IMG/VR virus record: IMGVR_UViG_2744054872_000001
Coordinates: 1-11,088 of that record
Length of the DNA stretch: 11,088 nt
Source: a virus
Taxonomy: Duplodnaviria; Heunggongvirae; Uroviricota; Caudoviricetes
Strand: one strand, 5' to 3'
Shown: positions 1,930-3,582 of the stretch, piece after piece
Numbering within the stretch: the first letter of the stretch is position 1
Layout of the letters: each line of letters begins with the position of its first letter
The notes under the pieces: generated by a model
What the model was told of the DNA's origin: nothing
Seen by the model: only the letters and a program-made list of their open reading frames with translations
The model's database searches: none
Made by a program: the position numbers and the translations under genes

Positions 1930-1964
1930 CTCGTAGAATCTGGTGTGTTAACCGATTCTACGAG
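1930..1964. promoter_or_regulatory. Palindrome copy A: perfect 11-bp arms CTCGTAGAATC / GATTCTACGAG around a 13-bp centre (core GTAGAAT-N15-ATTCTAC); candidate operator or SD-sequestering hairpin
   Basis: Arms 1930-1940 and 1954-1964 are exact reverse complements; overlaps the RBS of the 1923 gene; same core and spacing as copy B at 3548-3576. Confidence 0.45.
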
Positions 1965-2053
1965 ATGTCATTTGTCCATTGTGCCAACTGTTATTATGGA
2001 TATCATAATTCATACGAATCGCGCTGCTACAGGATGTATAGCAACCTTAATAA

Positions 2054-3313
2054 TTATTTGAATATATCAGTTATAGTTGGGTAATTATACATCTTAAGCT
2101 TATCTCTAAATTTCATAGAAAATATAGGGTCTACCTTACATCTGTGTAAGAGCTTTGCAATCCTTAGCTCCCTCTCATTCATAATATCTTTGTATTCGCT
2201 ATCAATACTTTCCTGAATTTGCTGATTCTCAACAGGAGACGGTTTAGTAATTTTATCCCATTGATAAGTTGGCTTCGTAGTGTAATTTAAACTATCATCA
2301 TTTTGGAGTAATGCCTCAAGACGAGACTTAGCATTTTCATATAGCATTCTATCTTGGGGCAACATACTTGCAACACGCATTTCCATTTCAATTTCCGATA
2401 CTATCATTTCAAGTTGACGTTTTTCCGTTTCAATAGCTAAAAGAAATGGAAATAGGGCTTCTTGCTTAATCATTTGACAATTCAAATTATTGTTTATGCC
2501 ACTAAGTAATTTTGTAAATGAGAACTTCTTTAAAGGCTGCTGATTTATAACACTCTGTCTAACTGGCATTGTGTAGTTCGGTGTTTTTTCAAGTGTTTTC
2601 TTCACTTGCTCTATAGCAACATTAGGAGTGTAGAAAACAGTCTTTGCTGGAATACGTAGCACCATAAACCCCTCCTTTATTGAATATTCATCACGAATAC
2701 GATCTCGCTCTATTTGTTCTGGGGATGAATGCCATGCTGCACCATCAATTTCTATAATTTGGCGTCCATTTACGACAAAATCAAAACGATAACGCTTATA
2801 GGGCACTTGCATTTCAAGCACTAAGTCAGGAGAAACTAACATTCCAGATTTAGGTTTAAGATTAAACTCTGCAACCATTTTACGAAGAAATGCCTCCTCA
2901 GCCGGAGATTCGCAACCTTTGCAAAATATATCAAGCCAGTTTTCTGCGTCAGCGTCAACAGTTTGCCACCATGCTAACAGTCCACGTCGGTGTCCATATA
3001 ATCGTTCATCTGACGGTTTTGTTAATGGCTTTGTTAACGGTTTAACTAAGGGTTCATTTAACGGCTTTAATAACGGCTTAAATAACGGCTTATTTAACGA
3101 ATTTAATAACGATTTATTTAATGGTTTGATTGACGGTCTATTTGACGACTCAATCGGTGGTTTAGATGATGATTTGTTTTTTTTATCAAAACCTACGATA
3201 GTTATATATGCTACATATAGCATCATGCCTGCAACAGGCCATACACATGGATAAATCACGTAACACAACAGTAATAGAACAATAGTCCCAAAAAATGTTA
3301 ACTTCTTCCGCAT
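2054..3313 (-). CDS. Membrane-anchored DUF559 (Vsr-like / restriction-endonuclease-fold) domain protein, 419 aa: two N-terminal hydrophobic helices, KPLx repeat linker, DUF559-like core, coiled-coil C-terminus
   Basis: N-terminus MRKK + two hydrophobic helices followed by DKKNK; linker KPLF-KPLL-KPLN-EPLV-KPLT-KPLT; core RFDFVVNGRQIIEIDGAAWH...RDRIRDEY...GFMVLRIP matches the DUF559 signature FDF...IE.DG..H...D..RD...G..VLR from memory. About 33% GC. Confidence 0.7.
   Translation of the reverse strand: MRKKLTFFGTIVLLLLCYVIYPCVWPVAGMMLYVAYITIVGFDKKNKSSSKPPIESSNRPSIKPLNKSLLNSLNKPLFKPLLKPLNEPLVKPLTKPLTKPSDERLYGHRRGLLAWWQTVDADAENWLDIFCKGCESPAEEAFLRKMVAEFNLKPKSGMLVSPDLVLEMQVPYKRYRFDFVVNGRQIIEIDGAAWHSSPEQIERDRIRDEYSIKEGFMVLRIPAKTVFYTPNVAIEQVKKTLEKTPNYTMPVRQSVINQQPLKKFSFTKLLSGINNNLNCQMIKQEALFPFLLAIETEKRQLEMIVSEIEMEMRVASMLPQDRMLYENAKSRLEALLQNDDSLNYTTKPTYQWDKITKPSPVENQQIQESIDSEYKDIMNERELRIAKLLHRCKVDPIFSMKFRDKLKMYNYPTITDIFK
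3013..3140. repeat. Imperfect 12-bp tandem repeat (about 9-10 units, consensus near TTWAATAACGGC) encoding the KPLx linker
   Basis: ACGG/ACGA/ATGG recurs at 3013, 3037, 3061, 3073, 3085, 3097, 3109, 3121, 3133, i.e. 12-bp period from 3061 onward; in frame with the 419-aa CDS. Confidence 0.7.
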
Positions 3314-3540
3314 ACCAAACTCTTTGCATCAATAAAGGGGACTGGCTTATATAATCAAATCACATGCCCGAAATAAAAGATGACCAACACCAACGGAAAT
3401 CACACTCTAAACTAATATACATTAACACTTAATATCGCCATCACAATTGATTGATTATGCTAATTTAAAAATGATATTTTTACAGAGAATATACAGCTCT
3501 ACAAGATGACTATTACACCAAAATTTAAAAAAATCATTGG

Positions 3541-3582
3541 CAACCTTGTAGAATTGATATTAACAATCGATTCTACGGGTTG
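3541..3582. promoter_or_regulatory. Palindrome copy B: CAACC-TT-GTAGAAT-N15-ATTCTAC-G-GGTTG; candidate operator for the 419-aa gene and/or weak terminator for the upstream operon
   Basis: Core GTAGAAT 3548-3554 and ATTCTAC 3570-3576 with a 15-nt spacer, identical spacing to copy A; on the minus strand the hairpin is followed by a U-rich tract (AUGAUUUUUUUAAAUUUU). Confidence 0.45.

Follow-up and report, generated by a model that had tools for sequence, protein, structure and literature searches.

Why should a single gene of a phage-plasmid be bracketed by two copies of one palindrome? The question is raised by an 11,088-nucleotide (nt) stretch of viral DNA, IMG/VR record IMGVR_UViG_2744054872_000001, which is referred to below in its whole length as the window. 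The window is 98–100% identical to P1-like plasmids, reaching 100% with the Escherichia coli plasmid pTetA_020022 and its relatives, and has flanks 98% identical to phages P1 and P7; it is a degraded P1-like phage-plasmid of E. coli. In it, the motif GTAGAAT-N15-ATTCTAC occurs on both sides of a gene encoding a 419-amino-acid (aa) DUF559 protein: copy A lies past the 3′ end of this gene, immediately before the phage gene pmgC, while copy B lies upstream of it. A preliminary description, made from the sequence alone, suggested either a dimeric regulator common to both sites or recombination-type sites that define a cassette of about 1.6 kb. The answer reached here is a different one. According to the alignments, copy A is LPsit, a late promoter of P1 and P7, plus a leader that folds back onto the promoter, and copy B is a diverged duplicate, about 65 bp long, of the whole module (activator box, −10 element, hairpin, Shine–Dalgarno (SD) sequence, and ATG) at the far end of an insertion. 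The hairpin probably keeps the tail genes untranslated unless transcription begins at the late promoter. The joint model, in which LPsit with its fold-back leader is an insulator and copy B is a diverged duplicate left by the stacking of accessory modules, is favoured here with somewhat better than even confidence.

Sequence and Statistics of the Palindromes

When up to two mismatches are allowed, exactly two sites of the GTAGAAT-N15-ATTCTAC type are found in the window, and both have no mismatch at all. The chance expectation is 0.03 sites, and none of 200 dinucleotide-preserving shuffles of the window gave two, so the opinion expressed in the preliminary description that chance is an unlikely source of such an architecture was well founded. 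Its reading of the letters is also borne out: copy A has perfect 11-bp arms, copy B is found where it was placed, both share the 7-bp half-sites at a 15-nt spacing, and both spacers contain TTAAC and end in CG. The same applies to the relation of the two sites to the genes. Copy B is 226–271 nt upstream of the ATG (3313) of the 419-aa gene, and copy A is 90–124 nt past its stop codon, where the left arm overlaps the pmgC SD sequence GAGG (1929–1932) preceding the ATG at 1923. The likeness between A and B exceeds the palindrome at either end (about 1919–1980 versus 3534–3598), a point absent from the preliminary description, and extends some 10 nt past the right arm and leftwards to a common CAATGA. 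The two sites are homologous rather than matched by chance and, as had been supposed, represent regulatory DNA of one type.

Identity of Copy A

In the records of P1 (NC_005856) and P7 (NC_050152), a feature named “late promoter LPsit” is annotated 32–50 nt upstream of pmgC, and the core of copy A aligns with it position by position. Copy A shares with LPsit of both phages the position before pmgC, the −10 hexamer TAGAAT, and a 4-nt spacer, and its −22 box is identical to that of P1 at seven of nine positions (AAATGACAT versus AAATGACTA). The 11 late promoters of P1 consist of a −10 element and a 9-bp inverted repeat bound by the Lpa protein (PMC10695390). A box of this kind, 9 bp long, with the consensus AAGTNACTT and located 4 nt upstream of the −10, is present in copy A, and a −10 of the TANNNT form is found in both A and B as TAGAAT, with no matching −35 detected by a sigma-70 scan of the minus strand. 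With a late-promoter weight matrix built from nine other late promoters, LPsit excluded, copy A scores 13.5, a value reached by only 11 positions in P1; LPsit of P1 itself ranks 10th in the P1 genome. The same matrix gives strong matches (15.9 and 17.3) at unannotated places, namely at 7559–7577 of the window (minus strand) and at 50726–50744 and 76780–76798 of P1 NC_005856 (minus strand), the first of which falls at the very beginning of repL, shortly after kilA, on the opposite strand.

The alignment assigns the two half-sites of the palindrome to different functional parts of one transcription unit. One of them (TAGAAT) is the −10 hexamer of LPsit, while the other belongs to the transcribed 5′ leader and is fused to the pmgC SD sequence GAGG, 6 nt from the ATG; the −22 box, which is the Lpa activator site, lies outside the palindrome. 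Such an arrangement speaks against the shared dimeric regulator suggested initially. From ordinary −10 geometry, with a start about 7 nt downstream, transcription from LPsit would begin near position 1948, in the loop. Only the 19-bp −22/−10 core of LPsit is annotated in the P1 and P7 records, where the downstream inverted copy of the −10 carries no feature, and no mention of the palindrome was found in a limited literature search on LPsit and pmgC that did not cover the P1 genome paper. Among the 11 annotated late promoters of P1, LPsit is the only one followed by a long inverted copy of its own −10 region; LP26 possesses the same box and the same −10 with no inverted partner.

Predicted Folding of the Leader

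The predicted fold of the minus-strand RNA from the −22 box to the ATG has an energy of −21 to −25 kcal/mol (z about −5) and encloses the SD sequence in its stem, while RNA beginning after the −10 is predicted to have no structure at the SD region. The consequence for the ribosome-binding site (RBS) can be expressed as its probability of being unpaired in read-through RNA and in late RNA, the start of the latter being set 7 nt after the −10. These paired values are 0.24 and 0.59 for P1, 0.20 and 0.59 for copy A, 0.18 and 0.57 for L097, and 0.13 and 0.48 for L188 (L numbers denote individual loci of the comparison), and in all four the read-through accessibility is below that of 97–100% of upstream-shuffled controls. 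In the P1-type sequences, L097, L098, and L188, the stem sequesters the SD sequence and AUG in silico, leaving the RBS unpaired with a probability of 0.13–0.30. The late promoter is situated in the 5′ strand of the stem, the −10 being inside the 5′ arm and the presumed start in the loop.

On the coding strand, the elements follow one another as the Lpa box, the −10, a 13-nt loop with the late start, and the inverted −10 copy fused to the SD sequence and ATG. Read-through RNA coming from co-oriented upstream accessory genes would carry both arms, fold with the energy given above, and bury the RBS of pmgC. RNA begun at LPsit would lack the 5′ arm, and pmgC would be translatable. The palindrome would thereby insulate the late tail operon, at the level of translation, from a variable accessory locus that is probably expressed in the lysogen. 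Read-through into copy A is plausible because the terminator scan found no terminator-like site between the DUF559 stop codon and copy A and because in three loci (L097, L098, and L188) the upstream gene reaches its stop codon no more than 14 nt from the −22 box. In addition, the P1 record predicts sigma-70 promoters within simC that point at pmgC, and in the window the co-oriented DUF5384/lipoprotein module described below is a possible source of read-through transcripts.

RBS hiding was also considered as a general trait of P1 late promoters and rejected: LPsit alone is significant, with LP23, LP26, and LPpac showing trends only. Some complementarity of the promoter or discriminator to the downstream RBS is seen in P1 at LP23 (58825–58843), LPpac (90475–90493), LP26 (78485–78503), and LPdar (31212–31230), for example, CTCTTCC…GGAAGAG at LP23 and CCTCCT…AGGAGG at LPdar; the accessibility differences at these promoters are not significant in comparison with shuffles.

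Conservation and Covariation of the Hairpin

A search of related genomes, proposed in the preliminary description, was carried out in isolate genomes and IMG/VR and covered 84 close P1-like loci. In 84 of 84, the copy A motif occurs once and always before pmgC, irrespective of whether a DUF559 gene is present, and the arms are invariant in P1, P7, and all these loci while the loop varies. A genome-wide palindromic repeat, either REP-like (repetitive extragenic palindromic) or MITE-like (miniature inverted-repeat transposable element), was rejected, since the motif is found once in P1 and once per P1-like locus, always at the same place. The DNA upstream of the −22 box is a complete mosaic, with at least five unrelated sequences among the close loci, and the variable locus thus begins at the −22 box. 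As for the spacer, the CG that follows the −10 on the coding strand is present in every related lineage, and TTAAC is not kept outside the P1 type.

More distant relatives reveal changes in the arms themselves. In elements from Salmonella, Klebsiella aerogenes, and Enterobacter, where PmgC identity is 74–78%, the −10 is TAAAAT and the 3′ arm is ATTTTA, so the replacement of TAGAAT/ATTCTA by TAAAAT/ATTTTA is a paired change; arms of 13–14 bp are kept, with a spacing of 14 instead of 15. Overall, the spacing is 14, 15, or 16 depending on the lineage. The stem of L098 includes a U·G pair, and that of L188 goes as far as to pair the −22 box with the start codon. Lineages with 65–68% PmgC identity have shorter stems, that of L100 with a G·U pair. 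At a PmgC identity of 53%, L192 and L193 (2440–2503) possess a different late promoter, ATGTAACTT-tgca-TACCAT, whose −10/discriminator region CATGGTGCCT pairs with the SD sequence and AUG of pmgC AGGCACTATG; this hairpin, which contains a G·U pair, has the same layout as that of LPsit and an unrelated sequence. Toxin–antitoxin genes lie upstream in L192/L193, in the same orientation as pmgC. Neither promoter nor hairpin is found in L011, L012, and L194, in which pmgC abuts the upstream gene.

In an alignment of 13 sequences, 93.5% of the cells are paired; sliding the partner columns lowers this share to 44% or less. Four pairs have changed on both sides. Paired arm changes, variable spacing, and G·U pairs fit a hairpin better than a protein operator.

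Origin of Copy B

A blastn comparison with P7 reveals an insertion (Table 1), the sole part of the window absent from P7, which contains the DUF559 gene together with copy B and has a G+C content of 32–42% compared with 46–50% in the conserved genes to the left. The flanking homology to P7 starts exactly at the stop codon of DUF5384 (3630) and, towards pmgC, at the copy A box (1975), from which it follows that copy B is part of the inserted DNA. Only about 20 of the 72,556 plasmid records contain the insertion, and none of the phage records does. Between genes that adjoin each other in relatives there is thus an accessory gene of low G+C content, which is absent from P1 and P7, as is typical of morons and variable cargo. 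The cassette postulated in the preliminary description was correct insofar as the matched sites do bracket an insertion of about 1.65 kb (1976–3629); that they are recombination sites defining this cassette is contradicted by the intactness of copy A in the 84 loci, by the insertion boundary at the −22 box, and by the independent duplicate with pmgC codons described below.

Copy B can be aligned with LPsit along the box, CCCG, TAGAAT, the 3′ arm, AAGG, and ATG, and the homology ends just after ATGA. Its box AAATGGCAA is identical to the common LPsit box AAATGACAA at eight of nine positions, and its RNA is predicted to fold at −22.5 kcal/mol (z −5.5). The ATG opens a 12-codon open reading frame (ORF), which, as the alignment indicates, is a remnant of the duplicated promoter–leader–ATG module. 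Between A and B, the core arms are identical at 14 of 14 positions, compared with 6 of 15 in the loop and unalignable flanks, which suggests some continuing constraint on copy B, exerted on a weak late promoter, a hairpin, or both. Copy B may still serve as a weak late promoter or as a hairpin ahead of the DUF559 gene.

Outside the cassette, copy B is not encountered: of 185 plasmid records with a related DUF5384 gene, it is present only in the 16 that also hold the cassette, and apart from these in a single metagenome contig. A plasmid search and a metagenome pattern scan for a donor lineage having copy B as its native promoter yielded nothing but the same cassette and chance matches. L005 and L006, considered as cassettes devoid of copy B, proved to be deletion and IS91-insertion derivatives. 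A related arrangement exists in L093, where a 56%-identical DUF559 gene is followed by a normal LPsit and pmgC and has a different module farther upstream. At the same distance upstream of the DUF559 gene as copy B, L093 bears a B-like palindrome CCTTGTAGCATC…GATTTTACAAGG, with the −10 degraded to TAGCAT and mismatched arms, which is still palindromic. Upstream of this palindrome (L093:1–60) there is a sequence resembling REP elements and bacterial interspersed mosaic elements (BIME), GGATAAGGCGCTCACGCCGCATCCGGCA.

The most instructive case is the P1-like IMG/VR contig L050, in which two LPsit copies (1548–1640 and 2950–3000) are separated by 1.4 kb. The copy farther upstream still has 13 codons of pmgC attached and stands behind a known upstream module; before the downstream copy lies the end of a different module, and the 1.35-kb insert between the two copies bears, on the opposite strand, a gene for a 297-aa DUF4760 membrane protein. 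By its structure, L050 is an independent duplication, showing that such duplications arise when modules are stacked, and the 13 pmgC codons included in the duplicate suggest that recombination of an ordinary kind, unequal or illegitimate, was at work. The same type of event, at an earlier date, seems to have shaped the window. Copy B would have arisen when P1-like genomes of differing cargo recombined, unequally or illegitimately, so that a DUF559 module became stacked beside a DUF5384/lipoprotein module of the P7 type, and only those recombinants that have LPsit directly before pmgC would remain viable. Stacked modules with a duplicated boundary promoter between them were encountered in only three lineages among the loci examined.

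Alternative Explanations

The hairpin might act on the RNA and not on its translation, as a terminator, an attenuator, a site for RNase III or RNase E, or a 3′-end stabiliser; a 3′-end or processing hairpin would part the accessory-locus transcripts from the late operon. The strength of the predicted folds and the position at a module boundary, which suits an insulator, agree with this, and in copy B the stem is followed five nucleotides later by U7. An intrinsic terminator was nonetheless rejected, since the terminator scan flagged neither copy, the U7 of copy B comes only past the 5-nt gap, and no U tract follows the stem in copy A, L097, L098, and L188 (GGUUUCAAUG, GGUUGCCAUG). Moreover, the 3′ arm always enters the SD sequence or AUG, which a terminator does not need, and an action of this kind on the RNA is considered unlikely. 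Even less probable is a DNA operator for a dimeric regulator common to both sites, whose binding as a repressor would cover the −10 of LPsit in the lysogen. Its attractions are the symmetric half-sites, whose centres lie 22 bp (two helical turns) apart, the identity of the core half-sites in A and B despite the differing spacers, and fold energies that clearly favour neither strand in close lineages. However, one half-site is a −10 hexamer that LP26 possesses in identical form without a partner, and neither half-site sequence nor spacing is conserved among homologous sites: the spacing is 14, 15, or 16, the half-sites change by paired substitutions, and the G·U pairs in L098, L100, and L192 would be A·C mismatches in duplex symmetry. 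The lineage with 53% PmgC identity has an unrelated sequence and yet the same promoter-to-RBS pairing. We know of no candidate regulator, and the C1 repressor operators of the window, two copies of TTGCTCTAATAAATTT at 4983–5010 and 6644–6671 (Oc4/Op51 and OrepL/Op53 in the P1 record), are different and asymmetric.

It is also very doubtful that copy B is a decaying, functionless relic and the palindrome of copy A a historical accident of the LPsit sequence. Decay could be read from the poor score of copy B as a late promoter, from the degraded −10 and mismatched arms of the B-like copy in L093, and from the series formed by the upstream copy of L050, copy B of the window, and the copy of L093, which resembles progressive loss. 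For copy A, the arms do not vary in 84 loci, compensatory changes occur, and distant lineages have independent hairpins arranged in the same way, all of which argues against an accident; for copy B, the preservation of the core arms relative to the loop and the palindromic state of the L093 copy are at variance with a relic. It is most improbable that the palindromes serve site-specific recombination (as attC-, dif-, or lox-like sites) or are the target or scar of a mobile DUF559 endonuclease cassette, although two similar hairpin-forming sites flank a single low-GC gene, this gene encodes a nuclease-fold domain, and the order B–gene–A recurs in the diverged lineage L093. Copy A is unchanged in all 84 close loci, and among these only the lineage of the window itself has the gene. 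Conserved DNA is joined at the −22 box and not at the palindrome centre, and A and B are each self-complementary, unlike the hybrid sites produced by a crossover within a site. No recombinase gene is present within 1976–3629, and by inspection the geometry resembles neither lox (13-8-13) nor the R″/R′ consensus of attC, so attC-, dif-, and lox-like sites were dismissed. L050 shows a like duplication around an unrelated gene of opposite orientation with 13 pmgC codons included, and DUF559 homologues elsewhere are solitary genes of chromosomes or small plasmids lacking such flanks. An equally remote variant is that the gene of the membrane-anchored DUF559 nuclease and the LPsit-like copy belonging to it form a self-promoting, homing-like cassette of P1-like phages aimed at the conserved LPsit–pmgC junction, in which the replacement promoter would keep the essential tail operon expressed and the palindromes would also be recognition or repair landmarks; a homing role of the DUF559 protein finds no positive support.

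Several observations weigh against the insulator-and-duplicate model itself. In close lineages, the sense fold is not energetically favoured over the antisense one, copy B is even better as antisense RNA (−28.0 versus −22.5 kcal/mol), and room is left for a role of the DNA palindrome as such. The hairpin of L100 barely alters RBS accessibility (0.43/0.45), and the other 10 late promoters of P1 exhibit only weak, non-significant trends of RBS hiding. The matrix score of copy B is only 7.3, a value reached by 59 P1 positions, and its box is poor in comparison with the Lpa consensus; its hairpin covers only the 12-codon remnant ORF, and its apparent conservation is left unexplained by the model. 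Finally, independent compensatory events are few (essentially one clade for the replacement of G–C by A–U), and shared ancestry inflates the counts, so the covariation backing of the hairpin should be regarded as supportive rather than decisive.

The DUF559 Gene and Its Surroundings

On the minus strand, the window contains, from the left, a pmgB fragment, tub, pmgC, the 419-aa DUF559/MTES_1575 gene, the DUF5384 gene, and the gene of a TraT-like lipoprotein, followed on the plus strand by the c4–icd–ant immunity region. The features discussed are collected in Table 1.

Table 1. Coordinates of the palindromes, promoter modules, insertion, and neighbouring genes in the window.
Feature	Positions	Strand	Description
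Palindrome A	1930–1964		Perfect 11-bp arms CTCGTAGAATC (1930–1940) / GATTCTACGAG (1954–1964); 13-nt loop
LPsit core (copy A)	1955–1973	−	−22 box AAATGACAT (1965–1973); spacer CTCG (1961–1964); −10 TAGAAT (1955–1960)
LPsit leader (copy A)	1921–1953	−	3′ arm GATTCTACGAG (1930–1940); SD GAGG (1929–1932); pmgC start codon (1921–1923)
Palindrome B	3539–3584		Outer 7-bp arms GGCAACC (3539–3545) / GGTTGCC (3578–3584); core arms GTAGAAT (3548–3554) / ATTCTAC (3570–3576); inner pair GAT/ATC
Copy B promoter core	3570–3588	−	−22 box AAATGGCAA; spacer CCCG; −10 TAGAAT; aligned with LPsit
12-codon ORF	3499–3537	−	ATG aligns with the pmgC start codon
Insertion relative to P7	1976–3629		1,654 bp; holds the DUF559 gene and copy B (blastn, window versus P7)
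pmgC	1357–1923	−	98–99% DNA identity to P1/P7; PHROG 1851, PmgC-like, E 1.5e-102
419-aa membrane-anchored DUF559/MTES_1575 (Vsr-like) nuclease-domain protein	2054–3313	−	Pfam PF04480, PF18741
DUF5384 gene	3629–4168	−	Pfam and PHROGs
TraT-like/glycine-zipper lipoprotein gene	4180–4752	−	Pfam and PHROGs

The DUF559 protein belongs to a conserved proteobacterial family whose members share a pair of hydrophobic helices at the N terminus, a CESPAEE motif, and a C-terminal region that is likewise conserved. The core E-x-D-G-A-x-x-H, invariant in the family, is intact in the window protein, to which a linker of KPL repeats has been added. This linker is encoded by at least nine tandem 12-nt units at 3013–3140, which specify a tetrapeptide repeat of the (K/N)PL type; a 91%-identical allele, P0002, is without eight linker residues, and the linker is wholly absent from more distant homologues. 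Homologues are found as solitary chromosomal genes or as cargo of 3-kb Shigella plasmids, with no palindromes at their flanks. For instance, in the 2,998-bp cryptic plasmids NZ_CP058889.1 and NZ_CP058851.1 of Shigella flexneri, a 47–52%-identical homologue, unannotated, is the main cargo. PADLOC returned weak matches of the DUF559 protein to the nuclease domains of Hhe and PDC-S37 and assigned no system. Accessory cargo is the best description of the gene, with defence or exclusion as a possible role.

The DUF5384 and lipoprotein genes (3629–4752), in the same orientation as pmgC, constitute a module of the P7 upf50.0/upf50.5 type, and by blastn an 85% DNA identity to P7 starts precisely at the DUF5384 stop codon. 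According to the annotation of the records, the space between pmgC and c4 is occupied by simABC in P1 and by upf50.0 (DUF5384) and upf50.5 in P7. The insertion lies at this sim locus, which in P1-like phage-plasmids is region 4 of eight variable, low-GC regions, and pmgC is among the most conserved genes (PMC9603915).

The late tail operon pmgC–tub–pmgB–sit, which begins with pmgC, is truncated by an IS1 in the plasmid of the window. An IS1 end (1–75) adjoins a 130-bp sit fragment, and about 1.7 kb is deleted relative to P1 (window 1–204 and 202–720); pmgB is truncated and most of sit is lost through the IS1 end and the deletion, so the late tail operon of this plasmid is broken. Elsewhere in the window, an IS4-like element, IS421, occupies 8900–10269, with 39-nt inverted repeats at its ends and a transposase that is frameshifted in RefSeq, and it is adjoined by a hok/sok locus (8569–8743; Rfam score for sok 114 bits). 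Rfam searches gave only sub-threshold chance matches over copies A and B, the matched families in other parts of the window being C4, c4-a1b1, and sok.

Known Parallels and Significance

The closest known parallel is the control of late genes in phage T4. In e, soc, 49, I-TevI, and segB of T4, as well as mobE of Aeh1, a hairpin that sequesters the RBS has the late promoter in its 5′ strand. In the T4 genes, the RBS is concealed by this stem in long early transcripts, and late transcripts come without the 5′ strand (PMC3014915, PMC2988022). The layout of the LPsit hairpin is the same, with the promoter in the 5′ arm and the SD sequence and AUG in the 3′ arm. The differences are that T4 belongs to a different phage family and uses the gp55 promoter TATAAATA in place of a sigma-70 −10 with an Lpa box, and that its long RNAs originate from early and middle lytic genes, whereas prophage accessory genes would supply them in the case of LPsit; the function of the hairpin in P1-like elements is known as a prediction only. 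A further parallel is the “fold-back inhibition” of transposase translation from externally initiated transcripts, reportedly described for IS10 and IS50 by Davis, Simons and Kleckner in 1985. Here too, the RNA started outside has an extra 5′ segment that pairs with the RBS, though the sequences differ. With morons and the sim locus of P1-like phage-plasmids, the window shares a low-GC accessory gene between conserved genes (PMC9603915); what sets it apart is that two modules are stacked with a duplicated boundary promoter between them.

What the P1 and P7 records leave unannotated is the predicted −10-to-RBS hairpin of LPsit; the promoter itself was already known, as was the T4 principle that the hairpin fits, and the duplication of the LPsit module is ordinary mosaic recombination. 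P1 is a workhorse phage. LPsit serves as a late-expression promoter in engineered P1 systems (bioRxiv 10.1101/2022.07.24.501295), and, if the proposed mechanism is true, “LPsit” constructs should knowingly include or omit the downstream arm. It would also extend the T4 design of a late promoter within a hairpin to an unrelated group of temperate phages, and it would explain how accessory or defence genes expressed in the lysogen can be swapped immediately upstream of an essential late tail operon, and in its own orientation, without leaky production of tail proteins.

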